Virus record (IMG/VR): IMGVR_UViG_2851949629_000008
Location: 1-45,030 of that record
Length of the DNA stretch: 45,030 nt
Direction: 5' to 3' (one strand)
Origin: a virus
Taxonomy: Duplodnaviria; Heunggongvirae; Uroviricota; Caudoviricetes
Shown here: one piece after another, positions 1 through 45,030 of the stretch
Position numbering within the stretch: position 1 is the stretch's first letter
Layout: every line of letters begins with the position of its first letter
Position numbers and translations under genes: made by a program
Notes under the pieces: generated by a model
What the model was told of the DNA's origin: nothing
Database searches by the model: none
Seen by the model: only the letters and a program-made list of their open reading frames with translations

Positions 1-267
1 TTACTCTGCAGGTGAAGTCGGCCACTCAATATCAGGTGCGGTTGATGTATCAACACGGTTCAGCAACACCCGATACTTCTTCCAGGCTTCCAGCAACGAG
101 TTTTCTTCCTCCGTTGCGATCTCCAGATCTACAGCATCCTGAAGTGGCGCAATATGCTCACTGAATTCCTGGATGTAGAACTGTGTGGTGACGGTCTTCC
201 AGCCATTCGGCTCCTGCTGTATCGAAGCATACCAGGCTATTTCAATATCGCTATGCTGCGGCAGCAT
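1..267 (-). CDS. tfa: Tail fibre assembly protein (Tfa) C-terminal domain ORF, 88 aa, internal start
   Basis: Translation ends ...[27 protein letters not shown], matching the lambda/E. coli Tfa C-terminus as recalled; lacks the N-terminal half. Confidence 0.6.
16..70. repeat. Direct repeat copy 1 (tfa 3' end, ~55 bp)
   Basis: ggccactcaatatcaggtgcggttgatgtatcaacacggttcagcaacaccc recurs at 1066-1120 with 1 mismatch (g/a at the 24th base of the quoted string). Confidence 0.8.
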
Positions 268-323
268 TTAACCCCTTGTAATTCATCGCCACAATTGATT
301 TAATTCACAAATAAAACTATAAC

Positions 324-992
324 ATGGTGAAATTAATGAAAAAAAACACAGATGATGGGGCTAAAATTTACACACCACTTACCCTAAAGCTTTATGACTG
401 GTGGGTTTTGGGAGTATCAAATCGGCTTGCATGGGGATGTCCTACAAAGGAACACCTTCTTCCACACTTTCTAGAACATTTAGGTAACAACCATCTGGAT
501 ATTGGTGTTGGAACTGGGTTTTACCTTACTCACGTACCTGAGAGTAGTCTGATATCTTTAATGGATTTGAACGAAGCTAGCCTGAACGCGGCATCGACAA
601 GGGCTGGGGAATCAAAAATTAAACATAAAATTAGCCATGATGTTTTTGAACCTTATCCCGCGGCATTACATGGTCAATTTGATTCCATTTCCATGTTTTA
701 CCTTCTTCACTGCCTGCCTGGAAATATATCTACAAAAAGCTGTGTAATACGCAATGCGGCGCAGGCCTTAACTGACGATGGAACTCTATACGGAGCCACA
801 ATTCTTGGTGACGGCGTTGTGCACAATAGCTTCGGTCAAAAACTGATGCGCATTTACAATCAAAAAGGCATCTTTTCAAACACAAAAGATTCCGAAGAAG
901 GCTTAACACATATACTCTCAGAGCATTTCGAGAATGTTAAAACCAAGATTAAAGGTACTGTAGTAATGTTTTCCGCTTCAGGGAAAAAATAG
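324..992 (+). CDS. Class I SAM-dependent methyltransferase-like cargo protein (222 aa)
   Basis: Motif I-like LDIGVGTGFYL followed by an acidic residue ~20 aa later (ISLMDLNE); appears AT-rich by eye; opposite strand to the phage late genes; sits between tfa remnants. Confidence 0.5.
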   Translation: MVKLMKKNTDDGAKIYTPLTLKLYDWWVLGVSNRLAWGCPTKEHLLPHFLEHLGNNHLDIGVGTGFYLTHVPESSLISLMDLNEASLNAASTRAGESKIKHKISHDVFEPYPAALHGQFDSISMFYLLHCLPGNISTKSCVIRNAAQALTDDGTLYGATILGDGVVHNSFGQKLMRIYNQKGIFSNTKDSEEGLTHILSEHFENVKTKIKGTVVMFSASGKK

Positions 993-1046
993 CATCCAGC
1001 CGCAGCACGTTCTTGCGCACGACGTGCTGCGGCATAATCCCAATGA

Positions 1047-1175
1047 TTACTCCCTGACAGGGTTCGTAGGCCACTCAATATCAGGTGCAGTTGATGTATC
1101 AACACGGTTCAGCAACACCCTGCATGCCTTCCATGCCGCCAGCAATGATGTTTCCTCCTTCGTTGCATATACTGC
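1047..1175 (-). pseudogene. tfa 3' remnant (last ~42 codons only)
   Basis: Minus-frame translation [42 protein letters not shown] is bounded upstream by an in-frame stop; it was not in the ORF track. Confidence 0.45.
1066..1120. repeat. Direct repeat copy 2 (tfa 3' end)
   Basis: Near-identical to 16-70. Confidence 0.8.
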
Positions 1176-1439
1176 TCACCTTTTTCACCCACGATTAACC
1201 AACAGCCAGATTCGCAGGCACGCCCCACCACGGCATATTCATACGCTTGCCATGTCCGAACATTTCAATCCAGCGATATTATGCCTGGGGTGTTCAAGCG
1301 CAATGAAGTACGTATTGTATCTTCGCGATTTTTTATAGGCTAATTGACGCGCAATTCTGAGCGGGGAGCGCACAATCAAACAGCACAGAATGGATCGCTG
1401 ATATTTATCCTTTTGTCGGTTTATCAAACAACAAGAGAG

Positions 1440-3275
1440 TCAATAGCGGATTGTCCCTACATCCATTTCTGGCGAATCCACTAACCAGAAATTATCTGGC
1501 TTTACAGCCAGAATGATCCAGGCAGTGTTTGTTGTTGATGACCAGGAAGGCAGCACATCGTATGCCGGGTCATCGCAAGAATCACGATAACCGTACTCAT
1601 TAAAAAGTGGAGCCATTGCTGCCACAAGATTCACCGCATTCAGCTCATTACCCAGCTTGCGCTCAAAAAGTGCCACACCTGCCGTTCCTTCCACCCACAC
1701 GCCACGGCTGTGACCACTATAACCATAATCAGGGTGGTACGGTGTGTAACCCGTGGTTTCCCTCGTACCAAATAAAAAACGCCCCATATATTTTCGGCAC
1801 TTAGCCGCTTTCTCAGCATCAATATTGGCAACAAACAATCCGCCCCAGGAAGACTGATCCAGCGCCGCTGCGTTGTCATAGTGGGTTGAATGAACCCCCT
1901 GTCGAAATCGGCCTTCATCTTCCACCCACAGACCTCTGATGATGCTCTTTGCCAGCCTGTCAGCCCGCTCACTGAAACCGTCAAATCCCAGCCGTCCCAT
2001 CAGTTCAAACAAAAACCAGATATCAACGTTATGCTCCAGTGCGCACCATTCGGCGACAAAAGTTTCATCAAAATTGCCGTCCACATAACGCCCCTGCCCC
2101 CCTTTATACAGGCCTTCACGCAGGTCGCCTGGTGTGCTCACCAGAAAAGTATCCAGCCAGGCAATGCCTGCCAATAGCTTTTCTCTGACCCGCGCAGTCT
2201 GAGTACCGTCCGGATACTTCTCCAGATAGAAAGCAAGAGCATAATAAACCCATGCCGCATTGCCCAAGCGGTAATAGGTACGCGGTGACATGGCAGACAG
2301 CCTGTTAACAAAAAACTTTACTCCACCGTTTTCATCAACAAGCGCACACAAGCCCGCAACGTATCTTTCTACAGCCTCATGTCGCTGAACCATCAACGCC
2401 AGTGCTGCCAGCGCCTGGTCATACGTGTAACACCGATCTTTCATCACCCTGATCACTTCGGGGTCTGCGTCCTCCGGCATCCAGTAGCTACGAATGAGCA
2501 GTGGAAACTCCAGCGTTGTGATCCACGCATTATCCTCAATCCGAATAAGACGAAACTGTTTTGCTCCCGTCCAGCAACGTCTGAAATAGAAAGTTCCGTC
2601 ACTATTCAAATTAGCGTCGCCGTTAAAATACTCTCCGGTTGTATAAGCATACATATCGACTTTATACTTTTCAGGTTCAGGAATATCGCAATATCCGTTA
2701 ACTGCACCGACATAATTAAAATCGATATTTTCTTTTATTTTTAAAGATATTGATGTATTAACAACCTCGGGTTGTTCCAGTTTTAACATTGCAGTAGTGC
2801 AACGACTCACGATGTCGTCAAAGTTCTCAAAGCGCAAACCGGGAAAACTATCGGCTATTCCCTGCATTTCAGACAGTAACGCTTCTGCCCTTTTTGTCGC
2901 TGATATTGCCACATCTGCACTTCGTTGCGCCTGACTTGTCAAATCTTCAAATCGTTTCACCACATCTGGCTTCAGGTCGCCTTCGTCGGGGGCAGTCAGA
3001 AAATCATTCAGCGTACCTGGTCTGGAACCTTCATAAACGGTAATGGTCCCGGCATGTGAAGGCGGAAAACCTTCAACCAACAGGGTGACGCTGTATTGAC
3101 CATACTCAACATCCATGCTGTAACGTCCAGCTTCATCCGGATTTTCTGAGGCCACCGTGTTCACCACAACCGTTGTGCTGTTACGTTTTGCCTTCAGTTG
3201 AATAGTGCAGTTCTGTATTGGTTTTCCCGCACCATCTTTCAGCACACCTGAGATTTTTACTGCTGCCATATCCAC
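1440..3275 (-). CDS. stf: Side tail fibre protein, chimeric: lambda Stf-like N-terminus with a distinct C-terminal domain
   Basis: First ~90 aa (MAAVKISGVLKDGAGKPIQNCTIQLKAKRNSTTVVVNTV...) match the lambda Stf N-terminus as recalled; the remaining ~500 aa are unrelated to lambda Stf; position after lom. Confidence 0.8.
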   Translation of the reverse strand: MDMAAVKISGVLKDGAGKPIQNCTIQLKAKRNSTTVVVNTVASENPDEAGRYSMDVEYGQYSVTLLVEGFPPSHAGTITVYEGSRPGTLNDFLTAPDEGDLKPDVVKRFEDLTSQAQRSADVAISATKRAEALLSEMQGIADSFPGLRFENFDDIVSRCTTAMLKLEQPEVVNTSISLKIKENIDFNYVGAVNGYCDIPEPEKYKVDMYAYTTGEYFNGDANLNSDGTFYFRRCWTGAKQFRLIRIEDNAWITTLEFPLLIRSYWMPEDADPEVIRVMKDRCYTYDQALAALALMVQRHEAVERYVAGLCALVDENGGVKFFVNRLSAMSPRTYYRLGNAAWVYYALAFYLEKYPDGTQTARVREKLLAGIAWLDTFLVSTPGDLREGLYKGGQGRYVDGNFDETFVAEWCALEHNVDIWFLFELMGRLGFDGFSERADRLAKSIIRGLWVEDEGRFRQGVHSTHYDNAAALDQSSWGGLFVANIDAEKAAKCRKYMGRFLFGTRETTGYTPYHPDYGYSGHSRGVWVEGTAGVALFERKLGNELNAVNLVAAMAPLFNEYGYRDSCDDPAYDVLPSWSSTTNTAWIILAVKPDNFWLVDSPEMDVGTIRY

Positions 3276-3323
3276 CCCACAAAAAAGCCCGCCAGAATAT
3301 GCGGGCTGTCATAACACTGCTAA

Positions 3324-3923
3324 TCAGAATTTATAACCGACACCCACGATAAAACCGTCAGTGCGCCAGTCACCACTGCCGGAGCCTTCATAAGCAATAT
3401 CAATGGCCACGGATTCGGTCGGGTTAAACTGCACGCCAGCCCCCCACGCCAGAGACGTGTTACTGTGGCGACCATCATCACTTGCGGTCAGCACATCGTG
3501 CGTTTTCCCCTTGTTGTCAGTTACGCGGAGATAATCCCCGGAGAAAGTCGAAACACGGCTGTAAGCCACACCCGCCATCGCATATGCGCTGAACCACTCA
3601 TTCACGCGCACAGATGGCCCCGCCATCATGCTGAACCAGCGGTTACGCACGGAATCTTCATGCCAGCGGGTATCACTGTAACGGGTAATCTGGCGATTCT
3701 TGTCTCCGGAATAACTGAATGACGTCACCAGCCCCAGCGTGTCCGTAAATTCATAACGGTATTTCACGTTAATGCCCTTCAGGTCATCGTTGCCGGGCAT
3801 ATCAGTATGGGACTGAATATACCCGGAGCTTAGTGTGGACTGATGCTCTGCTGCACTCGCTGGCGTACCAGCGGCGACCAGCCAGACTACTGCAGACAGA
3901 ATAACAGCACATAATTTACGCAT
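3324..3923 (-). CDS. lom: Lom outer membrane protein (Ail/Lom family)
   Basis: [12 protein letters not shown]... signal peptide, beta-barrel-like C-terminus ending GYKF, located after J as in lambda. Confidence 0.9.
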
Positions 3924-3990
3924 AATTACCTCTCGCTTTTCTGCAATAAAAAAGGCGTCATTTCTGACGCCCGTATTGGGGTTATAAAAT

Positions 3991-6900
3991 TCAGCTGATA
4001 CTGATGCCTGCGGTGGCTTTCTTCATCACCACAACCAGCAAATCGCTGATACTTGCTGTGGGATACCAGTTATTTACCAGCCATGCTGACACCGAAAACT
4101 CCAGTGTCATGTGACCGTGACCGGCAGGCATATCAATAACGCCACTGTAAATCAGCGTATTATCCAGCGCGGTACGGTTATAAATTTCAGCACCGTTTTT
4201 CCGCACTATCAGACGGCATGAGGAGTAAATATCAGTATGCTCTCTCTCATGCTTAGCGCCACTGAATGCCACCGCCGGAATAACAATTTGCCGGTCAAAC
4301 GGCTGATCGTCATAAACCCTGACGGTAATGGTCCTTGATGGCCACCGCTCCGGTGCTCGGGAGTCACGGGGGAAAGCTTTGCCCACTGTTTTAACGAGAT
4401 CGCCTTCAATCTGGTGCGCGGACAGTTTTCCCAGAACCCGACAGTTCTCGTTAATCGTGACGTTGTTGAGCGTCCCTGAGTTCGCATTCACGTTACCGCT
4501 GATATCGGCATTTTTAGCGGTCAGCTTTCCGTCCGGTGTCAGGGAAAATGCCGGCGGATTTCCACCGCTGGTAATGGTGGGAGCCGTCAGGCGTTTCAGG
4601 AACACGTCGTTCATGAATATCTGGTTGCCCTGCGCCACAAACATCGGCGTTTCATTCCCGTTTGCCGGGTCAATAAACGCGATACGGTTAGCGGCAACCA
4701 GAAACTGGCTCAGTTTGCCTTCCTCCGTGTCCTCCATGCTGAGGCCAATACCCGCGACATAATGTTTGCCGTCTTTGGTCTGCTCAATTTTGACAGCCCA
4801 CATGGCATTCCACTTATCGTTGGCGTCCTTCCACTCTTTCGAAAACTCCTCCAGTCTGCTGGCGTTATCCTCCGTCAGCTCGACTTTTTCCAGCAGCTCC
4901 TTGCCGAGATGGGATTCGGTTATCAGGCCTTTGAAAAAATCCAGGTAACCTTCCGCATCATCGCTCGCCCGACCGACGGCCTCCACGAATGCCGATTTGC
5001 CAACGGTGTTCACACTGCGGATATAAAAGTAATAATCATGGCCCGGTTTGATATTGATACTGGCGGCTATCCAGTACAGCCCCGTGCCAAGGTAGCGGGC
5101 TGTGGTTTCAACCTGCCTGATATCAGCAATCCGTTTTTCCGAGAACCAGAACTCAAACTGTACCGTCGGATCATAAACCGCAAGATGCGGCGTGGCGGTT
5201 ATCTGAAAATAGCCCGGCGTCAGCTCAATCCGCGACGGTGCTGCCGGTGCGGCAATCCGGAACGATACCGATGCCGGATCGCCCTGCTGTCCCCACGCAT
5301 TTACCGCCCGGACTGTCAGCCTGTAATTTCCTGGCGCCAGTTGCGTGAAGCGGTATGTAGTTTCCGTCGTCCTGGCCGTGCTGACCAGCCGCTCACTGCC
5401 ATCGTCCGCTGTTACGGTCAGACGGAGCAGGAAGCTCACGCCCTTCACCACCTTCGGTGTGTCCCATCGCGCCAGCACCTGATACTCCCCGCTGTCTGCG
5501 GTGACTTCGGCAGTCAGGTGCTGCACCGCTGGCGGCGTGACACCATTCACCGTGCCGCTCTGGTCGCCGTCAAAGTGCGCCCCGTTATCCACGATGGCTT
5601 CTTTTTCCGGTACATGCTGCACGGCGGTGATGGCATACGTGCCGTCGGCGTTCTCACGGATACTCACGCAGCGGAACAGGCGCTGGCGCAGCGTCGGCAG
5701 CTTCAGCCCCCACACGCTGTATTCAGCAACGCCGTCAGGAACACGGCTCACTTTCACCTTCACGCCGTCGGTGACGGACTGAACCTCCACGCTGACCGGA
5801 TTGCCACTTCCGTCAACCAGGCTTATCAGCGTGGTACCGGAGGATGGCAGCGTGATTTCACGGTCGAGCGTCAGCGTCCGGGTCTGGCTGTTTACCGCCA
5901 GCACGCGCCCGCCGGTGCTGATACCGGCATAGTCATCATCACAGATTTCAATGACATCGCCCGGCACATGGCGAAGCCCTTCGGCACCCACGCTGAAGTC
6001 CACGGTCTGCGTTTCCAGCAGTTCTGTTTTAATCAGCCACAGCCCGGCTCGGTGCGCCTGCCCCCGACTGGTACAGCCAAACGCATCCATCTTCGTGACG
6101 TTACGACCGTAACGGGCAATGGCCTGCGAGTCCTCCACAAGCTCTGTTGCCGTCTCCCAGCCGTTATCCGGGTCAATCCAGTTCACCTCAACGGCATTAT
6201 GGCGGTCTTTCAGGGCGCTGAAGCTGTAGCGGAACGGCGCGCCATCATCCGGCATCACCACATTACTGCGGTTATAGGTCCACACCTTATCTGATGGTCG
6301 GTCCTGCACGAACGTCAGCGTCTGCCCGTTCCATACCGGCATACAGCGCATCGCCGAGCAGAAATCACTGAGCACATCCCACGCCTTACGCTGCGTGGTA
6401 AGCCAGGCATTACAGGTGATGCGCGGCTCCGTGCCGCCAAAACCGTCCGGCACTGACTGGTCGCAGTACTGGCCGATGACATACAGCGCCCATTTATCCA
6501 CATCCGCCGCACCAAGACGTTTCCCCATGCCGTAGCGCGGGTGGGTCAGCATATCCCACAGACACCATGCCATGTTGTTGCTGTATGCCGGTTTAAACGT
6601 CCCGTCCCAGATACCGCTGTATTGCCGCGTCTGCGGGTTATAGTTCGATGGCACCTGCAGAATGCGCCCGCGAAGATGATAATTACGGCTCACCTGCTGG
6701 CTGCCGAACTGTTCCGAGTCCACCTGCACGCCGACCAGTGCCGTGTTCGGGTAGCACTGTTTCACATCGATGATTTCAGTGTATGACGACCAGAGCGTTT
6801 TGTTCTGCAGCTGGTCTGTGGTGCTGTCCGGCGTCATCCTGCGCATCCGGATATTGAACGGGCGCGGCGGCAGGTTACCCACCACCACCGAGGCCAGATA

Positions 6901-7386
6901 CTGCGAGGTGGTTTTGCCCTTAATGGTGATGTCTTTTTCCGTCACCCAGCCACCATTACGCTGTATCTGAACCAGCAGGCGAACTTCCGACGGATTCCGG
7001 TCCCCCTTTGAGGTGGTTTCCACCAGTGCCTGCACGCCGAAGGTAAAACGCAGTCGGTCAATGTTTGCCGACGTGATGGTCCGGGTGATCGGCGTGTCGT
7101 ATTTCACTTCCGTACCCAGCACCGTCTCGGAGCCGGAGGATTCAAATCCCTCCGGCGGTGTCTGCTCCTGCTCACCGGCCCGGAACACCACCGTGACGCC
7201 GGAGATGTTGGTATTCCCCTCACTGTCCAGCACCGGCGTACTGTTCAGCAGCACGCTTTTTAATCCCTCCACCGGACCTTCAACCGGCCCTTCGCTGATG
7301 GCATCGATCACACTCAGCAGCTGCGTGGACTTCAGGTTGTCCCTCGCTTCGCGCGGGGTATGCCCCTTACTGCTTCCTTTACCCAT
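3991..7386 (-). CDS. J: Tail tip host specificity protein J (1131 aa)
   Basis: Near-identical over most of its length to lambda J as recalled ([14 protein letters not shown]...); the C-terminal receptor-binding region diverges. Confidence 0.95.
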
Positions 7387-7400
7387 TCCTCACACTCCAT

Positions 7401-7427
7401 AAACAACAAAGCCGCCCAAAAGGCGGC
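7401..7427 (-). terminator. Rho-independent terminator after the lipoprotein moron
   Basis: Hairpin GCCGCC-caaaa-GGCGGC followed on the minus strand by TTTGTTGTTTAT. Confidence 0.5.
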
Positions 7428-7452
7428 TCATGAGTTACGGCAGGATTAACTA

Positions 7453-7791
7453 TTATTTACATGCATTAACACTATCAGCAAAAATTTTTGGCGTTAATGC
7501 TGGTACACGTTCATAAAGAGTAAAACTACTGCCATTTCCTGCTTTTTTGATATCAAGCACAACATCATATCCCCCCATAGCCTGTGGAACTAAAAGGCTT
7601 ACCCCATTCTCAATAGGAAGGGATGTTATAGGTGTTCCATTACCAGCCCATTGTCTGGATATGCAGCCTGACAATTCATCAATATTTTTTAATGAATTAC
7701 CTTCCATTACAGGTTTTCCGGATTTTACGTAATCCAAAGATTTACATCCTGTTAAGGCAATAATCGTGCAGAATAAAATCGTTTTGTTCAT
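7453..7791 (-). CDS. Small lipoprotein (moron) inserted between tail genes I and J
   Basis: MNKTILFCTIIALTGC has signal peptide plus lipobox Cys; looks AT-rich by eye; ATG at 7791 (track start 7803 is TTG); own downstream terminator. Confidence 0.6.
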   Translation of the reverse strand: MNKTILFCTIIALTGCKSLDYVKSGKPVMEGNSLKNIDELSGCISRQWAGNGTPITSLPIENGVSLLVPQAMGGYDVVLDIKKAGNGSSFTLYERVPALTPKIFADSVNACK

Positions 7792-7863
7792 ATAGCTAAC
7801 CAATAGAATAATTATCAGTGTTCGATATAAATATTAAATCAGTTAGAACATGAGTAAATAATA

Positions 7864-8505
7864 TTACCGCCCAATTACCACAACCTGACCACCATCCCCT
7901 TCATCTGCCGTGCTGATCTCCTGAGATGCCACACGTGACCCCACGCGCATTTCACCGTACAGAACAGGCAGGACATTGCCCTGGGCAACCATGTTATCCA
8001 GTGAGGAGAAATAGGTGTTCTGTTTGCCGTTATCCGTTGTCTGTGTACGTGGAGTTTTGGGTTTAGGAGCCAGCATCTGTGCGACACCACCAAGCGTCAT
8101 CGCTGCCCCCATAGAAAAGAGAATGTCACTGAAAGCGATACTGATCCCCGGCATCCAGATTGCCGTAGCAATCAACGCCGCACCCAGCACCGCCTGAAAC
8201 ACACCGCCACTTTTTGCTCCCGCAAGACGCGGCACGATGTGGATCACGGCACCATTTGCCAGCGGCTCATTAAGACGGGCAGATAATTCGGTTTCTCCTG
8301 CATCCCGCCCGGCAATCCGTACCTGATACCAGCCATCGCTCAGTTTCTGACGAAACGCCGGGAGCTGTGTGGCCAGTGCCCGGATGGCTTCAGCCCCCGT
8401 TTTCACACGAAGGTCGATGCGGCGGCCAAATCGTTGCAAATCCCCGTAAAGGCAGATGCGTGCCATGCCCGGTGACGCCAGAGGGAGTGTGTGCGTCGCT
8501 GCCAT
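7864..8505 (-). CDS. I: Tail assembly protein I
   Basis: Position between K and J, overlaps K 3' end as in lambda; ubiquitin-like N-terminus typical of gpI. Confidence 0.85.
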   Translation of the reverse strand: MAATHTLPLASPGMARICLYGDLQRFGRRIDLRVKTGAEAIRALATQLPAFRQKLSDGWYQVRIAGRDAGETELSARLNEPLANGAVIHIVPRLAGAKSGGVFQAVLGAALIATAIWMPGISIAFSDILFSMGAAMTLGGVAQMLAPKPKTPRTQTTDNGKQNTYFSSLDNMVAQGNVLPVLYGEMRVGSRVASQEISTADEGDGGQVVVIGR

Positions 8506-9146
8506 TTGTCGGTATACCTCTCTCGTTTGCTCAGTTGTTCAGGAATATGGTGCAGCAGCTCGCCATCACCACAGTAAATAGCGGCATGATTCGGCACCGA
8601 TGAACCAAAGCAGCACAGCAGCACATCGCCCGGCTGCGCCGCTGACAACGGCACCTGATACAGCCCCGTTGCCTCCAGATTATCCAGATAGAGATTCTGA
8701 CCGTGACGCCACCAGTCATCCTCACGATGAAAGTCCGGCATCTCAATCCCCGCCAGATGGTAAGCATCCCGGAACAGTGTGTAACAGTCCGTCACCCCGT
8801 ACTCAAAGCGCCGCCCGGTGAGATGCGGCACACAGCGGAACTTGTGAATCGCCCCCCGGCAGACCAGCCACCACGGCAAATCGCTCTGCACCTGTAGCCG
8901 CCGGTCAGCCTCACTCAGCCAGGGCAGACCACCGGGGTGGCTGTGGACCAGCGCCACAATCTCACCCTGCATCTCTGCCTGCAGCCAGTCCTCCGGAGCC
9001 ATCCGGAAATAATCCTCCGGCTCACCGGAAATATTCACGCAGGGAAAATATCTTTCCCCCTCCGGCGTTCTCACCACGAAGCCGCACGACTCCGCTGGCG
9101 CACATCGCCGGGCGTGCGCCAGAATCGCTGATTCTGTCTCTGTCAT
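8403..9146 (-). CDS. K: Tail assembly protein K (JAB/MPN plus NlpC/P60-like)
   Basis: Contains HSHPGG (JAMM-like) and a Cys/His NlpC-P60-like C-terminus; the canonical lambda K would start at the internal Met at 9002 (MAPEDWLQ...), the longer ORF includes the MPN N-terminus. Confidence 0.85.
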   Translation of the reverse strand: MTETESAILAHARRCAPAESCGFVVRTPEGERYFPCVNISGEPEDYFRMAPEDWLQAEMQGEIVALVHSHPGGLPWLSEADRRLQVQSDLPWWLVCRGAIHKFRCVPHLTGRRFEYGVTDCYTLFRDAYHLAGIEMPDFHREDDWWRHGQNLYLDNLEATGLYQVPLSAAQPGDVLLCCFGSSVPNHAAIYCGDGELLHHIPEQLSKRERYTDKWQRRTHSLWRHRAWHASAFTGICNDLAAASTFV

Positions 9147-26176: not shown

Positions 26177-26251
<75 letters not shown>

Positions 26252-26254
26252 ATA

Positions 26255-26330
<76 letters not shown>

Positions 26331-26332
26331 AC

Positions 26333-26409
26333 TGGACCGCCACCGGGGACTCGAACCTCGCACACTCAACTTAAAGGGTTGACGCTCTTTCCTGATGAGC
26401 CAGTGGCGG
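26333..26409 (-). tRNA. tRNA-like gene, anticodon loop CCUUUAA (UUU, Lys-type; C33 is noncanonical)
   Basis: 77 nt, 7-bp acceptor stem, T-loop TTCGAGT, CCA end; one A-C mismatch in the T-stem. Confidence 0.4.
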
Positions 26410-26410
26410 T

Positions 26411-26486
26411 TGGTGGCCCTTGCTGGATTTGAACCAGCGACCTGGCGATTATGAGTCGCTCGCTCTCACCACTGAGCTAAAGGGCC
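26411..26486 (-). tRNA. tRNA with CAU anticodon (Ile2/ileX-like or Met)
   Basis: GGCCCTTTAGCTCAGTGG...CTCATAA...GGTTCAAATCC resembles E. coli ileX as recalled. Confidence 0.7.
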
Positions 26487-31409: not shown

Positions 31410-31927
31410 TTTTTCGTGGGATGAGCTAAGGCTTTCAGCTTTTTTAGATACATAAGCCGCGTTTCAAGAAATCGAACTTGCCTTTCAAGATCCTCAATGC
31501 GTCGGTCTTTTGACAGCTCCAATGCTGATGCCGCTTTTTCTGGATCAACTGATATTGCAATGTTTCTTTTGGTGCCAATCTTGAGCGCGCGTAAACCAGC
31601 TTCTCCGCGCTCTTCATAGACCTTCAGCCACCTGGCTACAGAACCACTACCAGCAAGCATAAAGTGAGCAGCAGCCTGATTAAGGGACATGTGCTGCTCG
31701 ATCACAGCTTTCACGACCTTAATACGCAACTCTGGATCAGCACTAACGCCTTTAGGTTTGGGAATTAAACCTTTTTCTCCATGTTTTTCATAGAGGGCAA
31801 CCCATGTCCTGACCTGGGTTCGGGGGACACCAAAACGTGCCGAGATGATCCTGTAACCATCATCAGTTGTGAAGTAGTGATTCACGACTTCAAGGCGCTT
31901 TTCAAAAGGGTATTTTGGCTTTGACAT
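31406..31927 (-). CDS. insJ: IS150 OrfA (InsJ, HTH)
   Basis: 173 aa; overlaps orfB. Confidence 0.9.
   Translation of the reverse strand: MSKPKYPFEKRLEVVNHYFTTDDGYRIISARFGVPRTQVRTWVALYEKHGEKGLIPKPKGVSADPELRIKVVKAVIEQHMSLNQAAAHFMLAGSGSVARWLKVYEERGEAGLRALKIGTKRNIAISVDPEKAASALELSKDRRIEDLERQVRFLETRLMYLKKLKALAHPTKK
31422..31428 (-). promoter_or_regulatory. IS150 -1 programmed frameshift heptamer AAAAAAG
   Basis: Minus-strand A AAA AAG at the orfA/orfB overlap, as expected for IS3-family transframe transposase. Confidence 0.6.
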
Positions 31928-32236
31928 ATTAGGGGCTATTCCATTTCATCGTCCAACAAAATGGGTGCAGTACACTTCGATTTATAGTCGGGTGGGGCTT
32001 TTCTCTATCTGCCTTTTGGTGTTCATGCCTGAGACAGATAGCCTCAAGCACCCGCAGCAATTCTACTTATGACGCAATTTAATGACAACAACTCTACAGC
32101 GGTAGTGTGTTTAACTATTGACATTGATTAACTCATTATTCAAAATTTTTGCGTACGCATTAATGATTTTGTGTCGTTGTTGTGATGGTAAAAAAATCAC
32201 AAACGATCTAACAATAACATAGGTGATATTTTCAAT

Positions 32237-40151: not shown

Positions 40152-40500
40152 GGGTCAGGTGGAGTGCGTGCGCCGGACACGGGTGAACATCCGGCACTGA
40201 CAGTTTACTGAAAGGATATGTCCCTGAAAAGTCAGGGCATAACGCGAAAGCGCACGGCGAAATTGGTCTCTCTGTACGGTGTCGTTAAATTTAGTTCGAC
40301 CGTGCGCTTCCGGTTGTGGCAATCCGCGAAATGGCGCGGCGGTAAGTATGGCGGGGTTATTCCTTCCCCGTTGAGGACACCGGGTTGTCAGGTTGACCAT
40401 ACGCTTAAGTGACAACCCCGCTGCAACGCCCTCTGTTATCAATTTTCTGGTGACGTTTGGCGGTATCAGTTTTACTCCGTGACTGCTCTGCCGCCGTTTT
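40152..40500 (+). ncRNA. Candidate structured noncoding RNA region (GC-rich, multiple hairpins)
   Basis: Stems CCCTGA/TCAGGG, CCGCG/CGCGG, GGGTTGTCA/TGACAACCC, GGCGG/CCGCC followed by GTTTTTAAAG; ORFs here are Arg-rich and implausible; strand is uncertain. Confidence 0.3.
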
Positions 40501-41140: not shown

Positions 41141-43612
41141 ATGAGTAAAGTCTTTATTTGCGCCGCTATTCCTGACGAACTGGCAACAAGGGAAGAAGGC
41201 GCTGTGGCTGTAGCCACAGCCATTGAAGCTGGCGACGAACGCCGTGCACGAGCAAAATTTCACTGGCAATTCCTGGAACATTATCCGGCTGCTCAGGACT
41301 GCGCTTATAAATTTATTGTCTGCGAGGATAAACCTGGCATACCCCGCCCTGCCCTCGATTCATGGGATGCTGAATATATGCAGGAAAACCGCTGGGATGA
41401 GGAGTCTGCTTCTTTTGTTCCGGTTGAGACTGAATCCGATCCGATGAACGTCACTTTTGACAAGCTGGCCCCTGAAGTACAGAACGCTGTCATGGTTAAG
41501 TTCGACACATGTGAAAACATCACCGTTGATATGGTTATTAGCGCACAGGAATTGTTGCAGGAAGACATGGCAACATTCGACGGACATATCGTTGAAGCGT
41601 TGATGAAAATGCCAGAAGTTAACGCCATGTATCCGGAGCTTAAGTTGCACGCCATTGGGTGGGTTAAGCATAAATGTATTCCTGGTGCTAAATGGCCCGA
41701 AATTCAGGCAGAGATGCGCATCTGGAAAAAACGTCGCGAAGGTGAACGCAAGGAAACCGGAAAATACACGTCTGTTGTTGATCTCGCCCGCGCCAGAGCC
41801 AATCAACAGTACACTGAAAATTCAACAGAAAAAATCAGCCCGGTCATTGCTGCCATTCATCGCGAATACAAGCAGACATGGAAAACACTGGATGACGAAC
41901 TGGCCTACGCTCTCTGGCCTGGTGATGTGGATGCCGGAAACATTGACGGCAGCATCCATCGCTGGGCAAAAAATGAAGTTATCGACAACGACCGCGAAGA
42001 CTGGAAGCGTATCTCGGCATCGATGCGCAAACAGCCTGATGCCCTTCGCTACGACCGCCAGACTATTTTTGGCCTTGTCCGTGGACGTCCGATCGACATT
42101 CACAAAGATCCTGTGGCACTGAACGAATACATTACTGAATACCTGACTACAAAGGGCGTGTTTGAAGATGAAGGAACAAATCAGAGCGCAACTGATACTC
42201 TCTCGTCGCCAGTACCAGAAACTGATGCAGTGGAAACGGCAATTCCGGACAACGAAAAAACCGAATGCAAAGTGGAAGTCGAACCATCTGTAGAGCGTGA
42301 GGGGCCGTTCTACTTCCTCTTCACCGACAAGGATGGCGAAAAATACGGTCGCGCAAACAAACTTTCTGGTCTGGATAAGGCGCTGGCTGCCGGGGCTACT
42401 GAAATCACGAAAGAAGAATATTTCGCCCGCAAAAACAGTACATACTCAGGTTCACAACAAAATACTGGTGCATCTGACACGACCGCACAGCCAGAACCGG
42501 TAAAAGTTACCGCTGACGAAGTAAACAAAATTATGCAGGCAGCCAATATCAGCCAGCCTGACGCCGATAAGTTGCTTGCTGCATCACGTGGTGAATTTAT
42601 TGAAGGGATTAGCGACCCGAATGATCCGAAATGGGTTAAGGGGATCCAGACCCGCGATACTGTGAACCAGAACCAGCAAGAAACGGAACAGAACGACCAG
42701 AAAGCGGAACAAAACAGCCCAAATACGCAACAAAACGAGCCAGAAACGAAACAACCTGAACCAGTAGTGCAACAGGAACCGGAAAAAATCTGCACCGCCT
42801 GCGGTCAGAGCGGTGGTGGCAACTGCCCTGATTGTGGTGCGGTGATGGGCGACGCAACATACCAGGAAACATTCGATGACAAGAACCAGGTTGAAGTTCA
42901 GGAAGACGATTCGGAGAAAATGGAAGGCGCTGAACACCCACACAAGGAGAATGCTGGCAGCGCTCAGGATCACGCCAGCGATAGTGAAACTGGCGAGACG
43001 GCAGATCCCTTAATTACGGTGAACGGTCATCGCGTTATCACATCCACCAGCAGGACGTGTGACCATCTAATGATCGACCTTGAAACCATGGGAAAAAATC
43101 CTGATGCCCCGATTATCTCAATAGGTGCAATATTTTTCGATCCGCAAACCGGAGATATGGGACCGGAATTTAGTAAGACTATCGATCTGGAAACTGCTGG
43201 CGGAGTCATTGATCGTGACACCATTAAATGGTGGCTTAAGCAATCACGCGAGGCGCAATCTGCCATTATGACCGATGAAATCCCGTTAGATGATGCACTG
43301 TTACAATTGCGGGAATTTATCGACGAAAACTCCGGTGAATTTTTTGTTCAGGTCTGGGGAAATGGAGCCAACTTCGACAACACGATTTTGCGCCGTTCAT
43401 ACGAACGGCAGGGGATCCCCTGCCCGTGGCGTTACTACAACGATCGCGATGTACGCACAATCGTTGAGCTGGGGAAAGCCATAGACTTCGATGCCAGAAC
43501 GGCTATTCCATTCGAAGGTGAGCGCCATAATGCACTTGATGACGCCCGTTACCAGGCAAAATACGTTTCAGTTATCTGGCAAAAACTGATCCCGAGTCAG
43601 GCTGATTTTTAA
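41141..43612 (+). CDS. RecE-like protein with a C-terminal DnaQ-like (DEDDh) 3'-5' exonuclease domain
   Basis: Middle region (LLAASRGEF..DGISDPNDPKWVKGIQTRD...CGQ.GG.NCPDCGAVMGDATYQETFD) matches Rac RecE as recalled; the C-terminal ~220 aa carry MIDLETMG, GNGANFD and HNALDDA exonuclease motifs. Confidence 0.75.
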   Translation: MSKVFICAAIPDELATREEGAVAVATAIEAGDERRARAKFHWQFLEHYPAAQDCAYKFIVCEDKPGIPRPALDSWDAEYMQENRWDEESASFVPVETESDPMNVTFDKLAPEVQNAVMVKFDTCENITVDMVISAQELLQEDMATFDGHIVEALMKMPEVNAMYPELKLHAIGWVKHKCIPGAKWPEIQAEMRIWKKRREGERKETGKYTSVVDLARARANQQYTENSTEKISPVIAAIHREYKQTWKTLDDELAYALWPGDVDAGNIDGSIHRWAKNEVIDNDREDWKRISASMRKQPDALRYDRQTIFGLVRGRPIDIHKDPVALNEYITEYLTTKGVFEDEGTNQSATDTLSSPVPETDAVETAIPDNEKTECKVEVEPSVEREGPFYFLFTDKDGEKYGRANKLSGLDKALAAGATEITKEEYFARKNSTYSGSQQNTGASDTTAQPEPVKVTADEVNKIMQAANISQPDADKLLAASRGEFIEGISDPNDPKWVKGIQTRDTVNQNQQETEQNDQKAEQNSPNTQQNEPETKQPEPVVQQEPEKICTACGQSGGGNCPDCGAVMGDATYQETFDDKNQVEVQEDDSEKMEGAEHPHKENAGSAQDHASDSETGETADPLITVNGHRVITSTSRTCDHLMIDLETMGKNPDAPIISIGAIFFDPQTGDMGPEFSKTIDLETAGGVIDRDTIKWWLKQSREAQSAIMTDEIPLDDALLQLREFIDENSGEFFVQVWGNGANFDNTILRRSYERQGIPCPWRYYNDRDVRTIVELGKAIDFDARTAIPFEGERHNALDDARYQAKYVSVIWQKLIPSQADF

Positions 43613-43676: not shown

Positions 43677-43943
43677 AGCGAACAGTACCTGATAACGCTC
43701 GACGAGTGGAAACCAAAACGGTTCAGTCTCCCAATAACAAACACTACCCTGGTGAAATACGGAAAACTAGGATACATCGTTCCAAGACCACAAAAAATTC
43801 GTGGGCGTTGGCTGATAGATCGCCGAGCAGTATTTGTTGGGCCTGGTGAAACGGGAATTGCGCCGGAAATTCATACTGGCGATGATGATGCACTGAAGGA
43901 GATTTTAACTCATGTCACCGAGGCCACGAAAAAACAGCACTGA
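43677..43943 (+). CDS. xis: Excisionase (Xis-like)
   Basis: Small basic protein immediately upstream of and overlapping int. Confidence 0.6.
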   Translation, partial: SEQYLITLDEWKPKRFSLPITNTTLVKYGKLGYIVPRPQKIRGRWLIDRRAVFVGPGETGIAPEIHTGDDDALKEILTHVTEATKKQH

Positions 43944-45030
43944 CGTAGCCGGTCTTTACGAAAAGTTTGATCGCAGAACTGGCAGAGTTTACTACCAGTA
44001 TAAAAATCCTGTGACTGGAAAATTTCACGGACTCGGAACAGACAAAGGTAAGGCAGAAAAAATCGCTTCCACAGCCAATCAGCGAATAGCTGCAGCAGAA
44101 GCTGAATATTTCATGCGCAAAATTGATGAAAGTCCGTCAGCAACAAAACGTCGGGGTATCAGATTAAAGGCATGGGTTGATCGATATCTGAAAATACAGG
44201 ACACGCGACTGAAAAATGGAGATATTGCAGCTACAACTCACAAAGAAAAAACTCGAATGGCTGCATACCTGGTTTCCCGTCTGGGAAACCACCCATTGAA
44301 AGAACTGGAAGTAAGAGACTTTGCATTAATACTGGATGAGTGGCTGGATAAAGACATGGTCAGCACAGCGAGAGTAAATCGTGGATTATGGGTTGATATT
44401 TATAAAGAAGCACAGCATGCAGGGGAAGTTCCTCCTGGATGGAATCCTCCGGAGGCTACCCGTAAACCGATCCCTAAAGTAACCAGAGCTAGGCTCACCA
44501 TGGAAGACTGGCAAAAAATTTACAATGCAACGCCTGAAAAACACTTTATCCGTAACGCAATGCTTCTTGCGATTGTTACTGGTCAGCGCCGTGATGACAT
44601 TTGCCACATGCGTTTTTCAGATGTGTGGAACGAACACTTGCATATCACCCAGGGAAAAACCGGAATGCGTCTGGCGTTACCGCTTACACTACGCTGTGAT
44701 GCCATTGGGATAACGTTAAAAGAAGTTATTGATGGGTGCCGAGACAGAATATTAAGTCCATATCTAATCCATAGTCGGCACCAGAAACAACCGAAGCCGA
44801 TGAGTAAAGACAACCTGAGCGACTACTTTGCCAAAGCACGGGATCTGGCTGGGATAATTCCACCAGCAGGAAAAACTCCGCCAACATTTCATGAACAACG
44901 CTCTCTATCAGAACGGCTGTACCGTGCACAGGGTATCGATACAAAAACATTACTAGGACATAAAGTCCAGGCAACCACCGATCGCTATAACGATACTCGA
45001 GGTCAGGAATGGGTTAAGTTGGTTATTTGA
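43912..45030 (+). CDS. int: Tyrosine integrase (lambda Int family)
   Basis: C-terminus FHEQRSLSERLY...LLGHK...DRYNDTRGQEW closely resembles lambda Int (HELRSLSARLY...LLGHK...YRDDRGREW); stop at the window end. Confidence 0.9.
   Translation: MSPRPRKNSTDVAGLYEKFDRRTGRVYYQYKNPVTGKFHGLGTDKGKAEKIASTANQRIAAAEAEYFMRKIDESPSATKRRGIRLKAWVDRYLKIQDTRLKNGDIAATTHKEKTRMAAYLVSRLGNHPLKELEVRDFALILDEWLDKDMVSTARVNRGLWVDIYKEAQHAGEVPPGWNPPEATRKPIPKVTRARLTMEDWQKIYNATPEKHFIRNAMLLAIVTGQRRDDICHMRFSDVWNEHLHITQGKTGMRLALPLTLRCDAIGITLKEVIDGCRDRILSPYLIHSRHQKQPKPMSKDNLSDYFAKARDLAGIIPPAGKTPPTFHEQRSLSERLYRAQGIDTKTLLGHKVQATTDRYNDTRGQEWVKLVI

Follow-up and report, generated by a model that had tools for sequence, protein, structure and literature searches.

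At the start of the window, the 45,030-nucleotide stretch of viral DNA that we analysed, a methyltransferase gene lies between two partial copies of tfa, a tail-fibre assembly gene, and the question is whether these copies record the arrival of the gene or something else. The sequence-only reading had favored insertion or replacement of a methyltransferase cargo by recombination at the conserved tfa end. We think it very likely that positions 1-1175 are instead the ybcY-tfaX module, in which the repeats are tfa 3′ ends left behind by the swapping of tail-fibre cassettes and ybcY is a moron. The locus is composed of the following features.

1-267, minus strand: tfaX-like chimeric ORF of 88 aa (BLASTP, Pfam Caudo_TAP, PHROG 2341, PHROG 3893, K-12 annotation)
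17-117: distal repeat copy, near-identical core 20-71 (repeat search and recount)
268-335: divergent AT-rich spacer between tfaX and ybcY, 27.9% GC, with a proposed ybcY promoter and a Shine-Dalgarno-like GGTGA at 326-330
336-992, plus strand: ybcY, predicted class I SAM-dependent methyltransferase of 218 aa (Pfam, PHROG 2132, AF2); PGAP start 324, 222 aa
999-1033: GC-rich hairpin of 13 bp where ybcY and the tfa remnant converge (folding energy)
1047-1166, minus strand: 120-nt pseudogene remnant, probably of the resident tfa (Tfa residues 156-194; tblastn, PGAP)
1167-1439, minus strand: decayed non-coding scar with phage ev243 gp25-like fragments at 1188-1287 (tblastn)
1440-3275, minus strand: current side tail fibre, 611 aa (Pfam phage_tail_N at residues 5-130; PHROG 13714/4128)

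The direct repeats and the two tfa fragments

Our repeat search of the window yielded a direct pair at 17-117 and 1066-1166 (101 nt, 84% identity, spacing 1049), and a recount gave 85 identical positions out of 101. The tightest core pairs 20-71 with 1069-1120 at 51 of 52 positions, and 41-71 is its longest stretch without a mismatch (31 nt). The ~55-bp near-identical segment described earlier is real, although its register was one off: 17-71 pairs with 1066-1120, with 53 of 55 positions the same. Other elements of that description were borne out. Both copies are tfa 3′ ends on the minus strand, as judged by Pfam Caudo_TAP matches, and the ORF between them lies on the opposite strand and passed Pfam gathering thresholds for methyltransferases. 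Since the repeats are direct, recombination between them would delete ybcY and not invert it. When we surveyed 94 related loci, the 52-nt core was found in 144 copies, 76 with a single mismatch. By this comparison, the near-identity of the core is far above chance, yet it reflects conservation across the tfa family, and so provides no evidence for a recent duplication.

The window begins at the stop codon of tfaX, a name that the equivalent gene carries in the K-12 annotation. The ORF matched only the C-terminal part of Pfam Caudo_TAP (PF02413; profile positions 75-131 of 131, E 3.5e-26). By BLASTP, residues 32-86, which correspond to the conserved C-terminal helical domain of Tfa, are identical at 50 of 55 positions to residues 137-191 of the full-length Tfa of PhiR26_1, and codons 1-31 have no relation to Tfa. 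PHROG 2341 covers all 88 residues, and the N-terminus matched PHROG 3893. At its inner edge (~174), the tfa segment is thus fused to an unrelated 31-codon N-terminus. This implies an old illegitimate join rather than a homologous insertion, and the sequence points to illegitimate recombination as the origin of tfaX.

The proximal remnant, which holds the second repeat copy with its core at 1069-1120, is identical to Tfa at 35 of 39 residues (89.7%) by tblastn, and its fragment 1047-1145 matched Caudo_TAP positions 103-130 (E 5.8e-11). An in-frame stop lies directly upstream, and PGAP annotated the bases 1047-1166 as "tail fiber assembly protein, incomplete, missing N-terminus". The identical 120-nt remnant was present in 19 loci. 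Neither tfaX nor the stub encodes a full two-domain Tfa, with an N-terminal fibre-binding and a conserved C-terminal domain; each is a fragment, and the 1-1175 region therefore lacks a functional tfa. We found that the conserved C-terminal domain aligns to TfaMu of phage Mu (5yvq_B). As summarized in PMC9608196, which cites North et al. 2019 for the modular structure of Tfa, the C-terminal domain is a conserved trimerisation module and the N-terminal fibre-binding domain is variable.

The distal copy could also be read as a small-RNA gene instead of a protein-coding remnant, because positions 41-244 (minus strand) matched Rfam RF02111 (IS009) at 129.2 bits, above the gathering score of 117. 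However, the same model reached 227.8 bits within full-length coding sequences of tfa, in K-12 (tfaD) and in PhiR26_1, and 47 bits on the proximal stub, and most of the model is unpaired in the alignment. Given the higher scores inside complete tfa genes, the match reflects tfa coding homology and marks the tfa 3′ region, making a small-RNA gene extremely unlikely.

The predicted methyltransferase YbcY and its putative flanking signals

The ybcY product scored above the gathering thresholds of Pfam Methyltransf_12, _23, _25, and _11. The ATG at 336 is the start kept in homologues, with M1 invariant in an alignment of 30 sequences, and PHROG 2132 covers residues 5-222 of the product. In the SAM-binding motif I (GxGxG), which reads DIGVGTG, residues D55, G57, G59, T60, and G61 are invariant. 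The AF2 model (pLDDT 90.4) shows alternating beta/alpha elements in a single domain, and all of the best fold matches are SAM methyltransferases. Based on motif I and this modeled Rossmann-like fold, YbcY is a class I SAM methyltransferase, probably one of the small-molecule type. The best neighbors in fold and sequence, bacterial PmtA (8ys9), insect JHAMT (7ec0), and UbiG (4kdr), likewise consist of a single Rossmann-fold domain of ~200-220 aa, but the resemblance amounts to only 13-21% identity at TM 0.55-0.69 and lies below NCBIfam cut-offs. HMM classification, suggested earlier as a route to the substrate, reached generic methyltransferase models and no equivalog model. In NCBIfam we observed only far sub-threshold matches (CpaM, RquA, and PmtA, at 16-17 bits against cut-offs of 175-390), and PDB searches by sequence and by profile returned generic methyltransferases only.

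We rejected a DNA methyltransferase, as the 218 residues contain no (D/N/S)PP(Y/F/W) or PC motif and form a single domain without an extra DNA-binding region; nor did Pfam match YbcY to a DNA methyltransferase of the restriction-modification or anti-restriction kind. PADLOC placed YbcY in no defence system and gave only a sub-significant mad2 match (E 0.0039). Judged from its substitution pattern, ybcY is kept under purifying selection: it is intact in 90 of 92 loci, with a pN/pS of 0.14. Homologues with 56-68% identity occur in Enterobacter, Yersinia, Pantoea, and Testudinibacter as stand-alone chromosomal genes with no tfa nearby. Their neighborhoods hold no conserved partner, so genomic context yields no clue to function.

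Within the spacer, which is 94-100% identical between loci, we read a proposed ybcY promoter of TTGATT (295-300), 17 nt, and TATAAC (318-323). In K-12, RpoD holoenzyme bound the ybcY/tfaX spacer in genomic SELEX (Shimada et al. 2014, PMC3946193), and the promoters proposed there are TTGATT-17-TATAAC for ybcY and ATGGCA-15-TTAAAT for tfaX, with an H-NS mark at the same spacer. A consensus promoter scan and a strict terminator scan of 1-1500 called nothing. The proposed −10 element TATAAC directly adjoins the start codon (PGAP start, 324); a transcript from it would begin near 330 and be nearly leaderless, and TTGTAA-17-TGaTTTAAT, further upstream, is an alternative. These elements may act as promoters in this strain, and ybcY may be expressed in the lysogen.

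On the other side of ybcY, the hairpin begins 7 nt 3′ of the stop codon and has a minimum free energy of −26.4 kcal/mol (z −4.6 on the plus and −5.2 on the minus strand). No U-tract follows it on the plus strand, and on the minus strand a U-run lies 9 nt past it. It is probably a bidirectional terminator and may act as such in this strain. Homology between Kati-type loci and the window stops at 1032-1033.

Distribution of the module and proposed replacement of tail-fibre cassettes

The arrangement is the ybcY-tfaX accessory module of lambda-like E. coli prophages, placed directly beyond the tail-fibre genes, and is both old and common. When ybcY together with its alpha/beta-hydrolase flank served as query, 3,857 of 5,426 complete E. 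coli genomes gave a match, in nearly every case via ybcY, and at least 80% of positions 1-1500 was present in 280 genomes. The gene order of the window also occurs in the active phages PhiR26_1 and ev243. The cryptic prophage DLP12 of K-12 carries tfaD-ybcY-tfaX-appY-ompT, with the three shared elements in the order and orientation of the window, a ybcY that is 98% identical in DNA, and a conserved spacer and hairpin. In DLP12, however, a frameshift has made ybcY a pseudogene, tfaX has only 61 aa, and residues 50-194 of tfaD are retained; the window has an intact ybcY, a tfaX of 88 aa, and a proximal tfa of which only residues 156-194 survive. The window module adjoins the attachment site beside potB, a place taken in DLP12 by appY-ompT. 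Linkage of tfaX to ybcY was nearly invariant (73 of 74 surveyed loci), and only the tfa copy on the tail-fibre side varied. Across 91 related loci, the proximal tfa was complete in 32, reduced to a 3′ remnant in 37, and absent from 22; because the proximal copy can be missing, ybcY is not always bracketed. With a tfaD-ybcY-tfaX order in K-12, such a spread among genomes, and such tight linkage, the arrangement is largely fixed and widespread, which speaks against the earlier proposal that the methyltransferase was inserted as cargo.

The comparison with prophages that share the distal end and tfaX-ybcY of the window showed where the locus had been reshaped. Relatives with a full tfa match the window at 94-100% identity as far as ~1120, the end of the conserved core, and ev243-type relatives do so as far as ~1300; past these points identity falls to 18-50%. 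DNA similarity to ev243-type loci thus extends into the scar, in which tblastn recovered gp25 residues 86-97 and 44-65. The divergence points at ~1120 and ~1300 argue for serial replacement of tail-fibre cassettes. Hence, recombination at the conserved tfa end, as proposed from the sequence, did reshape the locus, but ybcY is not a recent cargo bracketed by repeats of its own. In the 611-aa fibre, a conserved prophage tail-fibre N-terminal domain precedes a C-terminal domain of unrelated sequence, and the fibre gene has no intact tfa on its 3′ side. PGAP labels this fibre "glucosidase family protein" in one genome.

We envision the following history. In lambdoid E. coli prophages, the module sits in the region that separates the tail-fibre genes from the attachment site. 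The distal repeat copy belongs to tfaX, probably an old in-frame fusion of 31 unrelated codons to Tfa from residue 137 onwards that travels with ybcY, and the proximal copy is probably a leftover of the phage's own tfa. What the two share is the coding sequence for the C-terminal helical oligomerisation domain common to the chaperone family. In the prophage of the window, the original stf-tfa cassette was probably replaced at least twice; the earlier replacement would have been an ev243-type tail protein together with gp24 and gp25, and the later one the 611-aa fibre now present. Recombination within the conserved tfa core or directly beside it would have left the 120-nt tfa stub and the decayed gp25 stub next to ybcY. 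Exchange of tail-fibre modules at conserved tfa/U-family sequences was reportedly described by Haggard-Ljungquist in 1992 and Sandmeier in 1994. The window resembles such exchange in having mosaic breakpoints in or beside the coding sequence of the conserved C-terminal domain, and differs in two respects: stubs of tfa and then of gp25 are nested next to a fixed moron, and the current fibre lacks a tfa. The locus is thus textbook lambdoid mosaicism, a fixed accessory gene beside a recombination-prone cassette, with nested stubs recording earlier host-range modules. It also helps to interpret annotations of "partial tail fiber assembly protein" and Rfam IS009 matches.

Were ybcY a recent cassette inserted at the tfa end, the repeats would be a product of the insertion and would permit precise excision. 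In principle, RecA or Red could act on the repeats to cause a deletion, given their 31-nt perfect run, the base composition of ybcY is foreign, and phages without ybcY exist (lambda, 2H10). Against this stand the age and fixity of the arrangement, from DLP12 to the genome-wide matches; the modest identity of the repeats over 101 nt around a core conserved in all tfa genes; and the loci in which ybcY-tfaX lacks a proximal repeat. Moreover, ybcY-less phages differ in the entire downstream region and not by the 1,049-bp unit alone. In the comparison with related prophages that the sequence-only reading called for, we found no single uninterrupted deletion product among the genomes and phage records inspected: the site was occupied in 20 of 20 window-type genomes, the best 40 of 370 PhiR26_1-type genomes, and 4 of 4 phage records. 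Rare excision products may occur outside this set, and in a PhiR26_1-type phage the repeats are 158 nt long. The one flank-only candidate that we opened, H199, has the alpha/beta-hydrolase flank without ybcY, but it is a DLP12-like remnant with a larger, unrelated deletion into lysis genes and not a tfa x tfaX recombinant. We therefore regard recent insertion as quite improbable.

Other routes of entry were also considered and rejected. Campbell-type insertion of a circular ybcY element lacks a recombinase, and the inner junction of the distal repeat fuses to unrelated coding sequence. For insertion of a transposon or IS, 1-7400 contains no transposase ORF and the only inverted pairs are weak (14-18 nt, 78-86%); as an IS target-site duplication, the repeats are too unlike one, being 101 nt long, imperfect, and coding. 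Alternatively, the tfa copies might be what is left of a tail-fibre cassette of the alternative or invertible kind (Mu G, P1 C, or e14 Pin). Pin-type invertases do lie between tfa and ybcY in Kati and PhiR68_2, and at other loci pin-like genes are truncated and accompanied by tfa-like segments that point one way or the other. However, the copies in the window are direct and not inverted, no Pin homologue or invertase occurs anywhere in the window, and Kati-type loci have tfaX on the far side of pin, where no invertible unit would include it. This makes an invertible cassette a most improbable source. We favor cassette swapping beside a resident ybcY-tfaX module.

Probable moron character and possible roles of ybcY-tfaX

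In its sequence, ybcY looks like a moron: a low-GC, self-contained unit of AT-rich spacer, ORF, and hairpin that lies antisense to the late tail operon. Its base composition is foreign, with 40.6% GC in ybcY and 27.9% in the spacer against 49.3% in the window, 50.2% in tfaX, and 57.1% in J. Morons are an established concept for lambdoid phages, from Juhala, Hendrix, and co-workers, and Tobe et al. reportedly described in 2006 "exchangeable effector loci" 3′ of tail-fibre genes in EHEC prophages. Like both, ybcY is compositionally foreign, antisense to the late operon, placed in the accessory region past the tail fibres, and putatively autonomous, with proposed transcription signals of its own. 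The same region holds an IpaH-type NEL effector, OmpT, AppY, or an alpha/beta hydrolase in sister loci. In contrast to these, ybcY encodes a predicted cytoplasmic methyltransferase and not a secreted effector or outer-membrane protein, is fixed to an unusual degree, and has a chimeric tfa fragment as its linked neighbor. Lambda, HK629, 2H10, ev099, and other phages carry stf-tfa without ybcY-tfaX. As these ybcY-less phages differ throughout the downstream region, the comparison involves no strict adjacent-gene pair.

We also weighed whether tfaX is a functional partner of ybcY, a Tfa oligomerisation domain expressed in the lysogen that disturbs or redirects tail-fibre assembly, for instance by acting as a poison on Tfa from lambdoid phages that share the cell or superinfect it. 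In keeping with this, tfaX rarely parts from ybcY, most copies are open (86-101 aa), AAGGGG, a good Shine-Dalgarno sequence, lies 4 nt 5′ of the ATG, a divergent tfaX promoter has been proposed in K-12 (PMC3946193), and the oligomerisation domain is retained where the fibre-binding N-domain is absent. Yet ~12 of 83 copies are truncated, including the 61-aa K-12 form, at least four unrelated C-termini occur, pN/pS of the N-terminal part is 0.51, and low divergence alone could account for the open frames. The tfa-homologous part of tfaX has a synonymous diversity of 0.13, ~six times the 0.02 found for the tfaX N-terminus and for ybcY, which suggests exchange with other tfa alleles. While its mostly open frame, Shine-Dalgarno sequence, and proposed promoter mean that tfaX may be more than a scar, we consider the partner role improbable.

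The role of YbcY is the point of wider interest, since it is an intact, selectively maintained, predicted methyltransferase carried by prophages and present in most complete E. coli genomes. A speculative and, in our estimate, unlikely reading is that ybcY-tfaX forms a two-gene lysogenic-conversion unit, in which YbcY would methylate a small envelope-related molecule (a membrane lipid, a quinone, or another) and TfaX would disturb fibre assembly of competing lambdoid phages; the nearest fold to YbcY is bacterial phosphatidylethanolamine N-methyltransferase. If so, the pair would change host fitness or susceptibility to phages, and this would account for its being kept beside tail-fibre genes in most E. 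coli.

The tfa repeat at the window end

ORF, Pfam and PHROG reading of the window end gave a minus-strand order of J, lom, a 611-aa side tail fibre, a fragment of a tail-fibre-assembly (tfa) gene and an 88-aa ORF.

Features of the window end (coordinates, strand, description)
3991-7386 (-), J
3324-3923 (-), lom
1440-3275 (-), side tail fibre, 611 aa
1047-1166 (-), short tfa fragment
324 or 336 to 992 (+), ybcY ORF, 218/222 aa, between the tfa fragment and the 88-aa ORF
1-267 (-), 88-aa ORF (tfaX), stop codon at the window's first base

The 88-aa ORF is chimeric: residues 32-86 correspond to Tfa 137-191 (50/55 identical), and residues 1-31 are unrelated to Tfa and match a different PHROG. The proximal fragment comprises Tfa residues 156-194 with an in-frame stop immediately upstream, and broken pieces of a gene like gp25 of phage ev243 lie at 1188-1287. 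In matching genomes, PGAP labels the region as a "class I SAM-dependent methyltransferase" between two partial "tail fiber assembly protein" pseudogenes, and potB follows 231 bp outside the window's first base.

The direct repeat of tfa 3' ends noted in the sequence-only reading is real, and its coordinates were right save for one base of register. A repeat search paired 17-117 with 1066-1166 (101 nt, 84%, spacing 1049; 85/101 on recount), with a longest perfect run of 31 nt and a core, 20-71 and 1069-1120, identical at 51/52 positions. Both copies are tail-fibre-assembly 3' ends, matching Pfam Caudo_TAP positions 75-131 and 103-130 of 131. We gathered 100 related loci from IMG/VR, GTDB genomes and annotated phages and classified them by tblastn with reference proteins. 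Since the 52-nt core occurred 144 times across 94 loci with 0-6 mismatches (76 copies with a single mismatch), the near-identity of the window's two copies is a property of the family. This region can be aligned with the C-terminal end of TfaMu from phage Mu (5yvq_B, E 1.4e-9). Tfa proteins are modular, with a variable N-terminal fibre-binding domain and a conserved C-terminal helical domain that mediates trimerisation (PMC9608196, summarising North et al. 2019). In the commonest locus class, the repeat extends over a hairpin downstream of each tfa end. This agrees with a possible origin of the arrangement, in which a unit of tfa and hairpin, derived from a second genome, would have been fused by illegitimate joining to the gene preceding ybcY; in loci of the L011 type, a hairpin ("term 8-54") precedes tfaX.

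The core also holds a palindrome-like 14-mer, TTGATGTATCAACA (TTGAT-GT-ATCAA), at 42-55 and 1091-1104, with a third copy (93%) inside the tail-fibre gene at 2750-2763. The Rfam family IS009 (RF02111), listed as a candidate sRNA of E. coli, covers 41-244 (-) in tfaX with a score above its gathering cut-off. It scores much higher within full-length coding sequences of tfa, both K-12 tfaD and that of phage PhiR26_1 (L006 7857-8055; L003 4410-4608); this model appears to represent a protein-coding region.

Distribution of ybcY-tfaX and search for excision products

The sequence-only reading suggested insertion or replacement by recombination at the conserved tfa end; the arrangement is the long-annotated ybcY-tfaX module. 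Phage annotators had named the methyltransferase "YbcY", and the K-12 cryptic prophage DLP12 shows the same order: tfaD, ybcY (pseudogene), tfaX, appY, ompT. Twenty complete genomes matched window positions 1-1500 at 99.7-99.9% identity, and serotyped human isolates (e.g. O169:H41, O6:H16, O27:H7) account for many of these. A query of ybcY plus one distal flank matched 3,857 of 5,426 complete E. coli genomes, and 58/60 rows in a spread sample of these matches carried ybcY.

Among loci with enough flank, tfaX adjoined ybcY in 73/74. The tail-fibre side is variable. The proposed comparison with related prophages found full-length tfa and stf (side tail fibre) beside tfaX-ybcY in 32 loci; 37 had 3' tfa remnants, starting at residue 156 as in the window (19 loci), 147 (4), 163 beside a truncated pin-like gene (9) or elsewhere (5), and 22 had no tfa next to ybcY, as in phages Kati and PhiR68_2 (stf-tfa-pin-ynaE...ybcY). 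The distal side varies as well (alpha/beta-hydrolase-ompT-int, appY-ompT, or an attachment site next to potB), and homology to the window begins at 1, 17-21 or 43, either within the conserved core or at its margin.

The deletion products expected from a tfaX x tfa crossover were then constructed and used as queries. With a perfect run of 31 nt, the repeats come close to the shortest homology on which RecA-dependent recombination can act, and excision via the direct repeats, as the sequence-only reading had predicted, is mechanistically possible. However, our searches of complete genomes and phage records found no evidence of it. All 20 genomes covering at least 80% of the window-type product were occupied, with no single-piece match; in each, the product was split into two segments spaced 1,049 bp apart, and the methyltransferase lay in between. 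For the PhiR26_1-type product, the best 40 of 370 genomes (at least 80% coverage) were all occupied, as were 4/4 phage-collection records, with no deletion product. The one sampled genome with the distal flank and without ybcY proved to have a larger deletion reaching the lysis genes. Phages lambda and 2H10 are without ybcY-tfaX, yet their whole downstream region is different.

Several loci had further peculiarities. In L014, examined among those without tfa next to ybcY, the neighbour of ybcY (6973-8616, +) encodes a 547-aa IpaH-type type-III effector (LRR_TTSS and NEL E3 ligase), showing that the region acts as a hub where accessory cargo collects. Where a truncated pin-like gene flanks ybcY, a diverged tfa-like segment (46% identity) accompanies it, on one strand in L023, L032 and L082 and on the opposite strand in L044, L061, L074 and L078; this may have been left by an invertible tail-fibre segment. 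L015, L022, L079 (1-212) and L100 hold, besides the complete module, a second partial copy (the last 41 nt of ybcY, hairpin and tfa) some 4.5 kb distant from it, upstream of a broken integrase; several contigs end within this second copy, which suggests that tandem or duplicated ybcY modules break assemblies. Short contigs with E. coli-type ybcY-tfaX (97-100% amino-acid identity) in metagenome bins labelled Bacillus, Planococcaceae and Segatella copri (L088, L095, L100) are probably binning contaminants.

Tail-fibre cassette exchange and the nature of tfaX

In four IMG/VR prophages, tfaX-ybcY is combined with the same distal end as in the window, and in L047 potB is visible too. Two with full tfa and stf (L067, L077) are 94-100% identical to the window until ~1100-1120, beyond which identity falls to 78% and then to 18-46%. 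For two with ev243-type tails (L075, L047), similarity persists to ~1300 before divergence. Judged from these divergence points, the tail-fibre cassette was exchanged within one lineage while ybcY-tfaX stayed in place. One cassette junction coincides with the end of the conserved tfa core. Synonymous diversity (pS) was six-fold higher in the tfa-homologous part of tfaX (0.13) than in its N-terminus or in ybcY (0.02), which fits repeated exchange of this part with other tfa alleles. Recombination at the tfa end was rightly suspected as regards cassette swapping; the repeats reflect this swapping together with the conservation of the Tfa C-terminal domain, rather than a recent insertion of ybcY that could be excised.

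For tfaX itself, we consider a tolerated fusion remnant most likely, with a functional role as the minority alternative. Most copies remain open (86-101 aa), but four or more unrelated C-termini occur among them; truncation affects about a dozen of the 83 copies, K-12's included, and the N-terminal part has a pN/pS of 0.51.

The 611-aa fibre has the usual prophage N-terminal domain and a ~480-aa C-terminal part unrelated to lambda Stf. One genome's PGAP annotation names it 'glucosidase family protein', and strain F9792 has just a 417-nt N-terminal pseudogene piece annotated. That no intact tfa follows this fibre suggests a chaperone-independent, possibly glycan-degrading receptor-binding domain.

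YbcY and the remaining prophage

The methyltransferase call was correct, as ybcY passes four Pfam class I methyltransferase models. The gene was intact in 90/92 loci, both exceptions being the DLP12-type pseudogene allele, with a pN/pS of 0.14 across 28 alleles. Homologues at 56-68% identity occur across Enterobacterales and in one Pasteurellaceae genus as stand-alone chromosomal genes in unrelated non-phage contexts, all named merely "class I SAM-dependent methyltransferase". Sequence and profile searches reached only JHAMT and UbiG. The confident AF2 model (pLDDT 90.4) matched, in Foldseek against the PDB, bacterial phosphatidylethanolamine N-methyltransferase (8ys9), juvenile-hormone acid methyltransferase (7ec0) and natural-product O-, N- and C-methyltransferases (TM 0.55-0.69, 13-21% identity). 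Reading the 218-aa sequence revealed no DNA-methyltransferase motif, and a defence-system search gave no match. We conclude that YbcY is a predicted small-molecule or lipid methyltransferase.

ybcY resembles a moron, an accessory transcription unit within a phage genome. Its GC content is 40.6%, and that of the spacer 27.9%, against 49.3% for the window. The K-12 ybcY/tfaX spacer is among RpoD-holoenzyme-bound sites, with an H-NS mark, and promoters were proposed for ybcY (TTGATT-17-TATAAC) and, divergently, for tfaX (Shimada et al. 2014, PMC3946193). The ybcY promoter bases are present at 295-323. A strict scan of 1-1500 called no promoter, and the proposed -10 element lies directly against the ATG at 324, which leaves the ybcY start site uncertain. 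The convergent genes are separated by a 13-bp GC hairpin (999-1033; -26.4 kcal/mol, z -4.6), and in Kati-type loci homology ceases precisely where this hairpin ends on its 3' side.

The window opens at the tfaX stop codon and closes at that of a lambda-type integrase (43912-45030, +; Arm-DNA-binding and Phage_integrase domains), and so has the appearance of a prophage trimmed to its two outermost genes. In strain F9792, 231 bp separate the tfaX end from potB (L001 4906-6000), which suggests the potB/potC junction as the integration site. Elsewhere, we observed four clustered tRNA genes at 26177-26486 (-), namely Gly(TCC), Thr(TGT), Lys(TTT) and Met(CAT), and Rfam hits that exceed the gathering score for the sok antitoxin RNA of a hok/sok-type locus (31898-32053, -) and for the DicF sRNA (40445-40496, +). 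Lastly, an 823-aa ORF in the early region (41141-43612, +) carries a C-terminal Rv2179c-like 3'-5' exoribonuclease domain.
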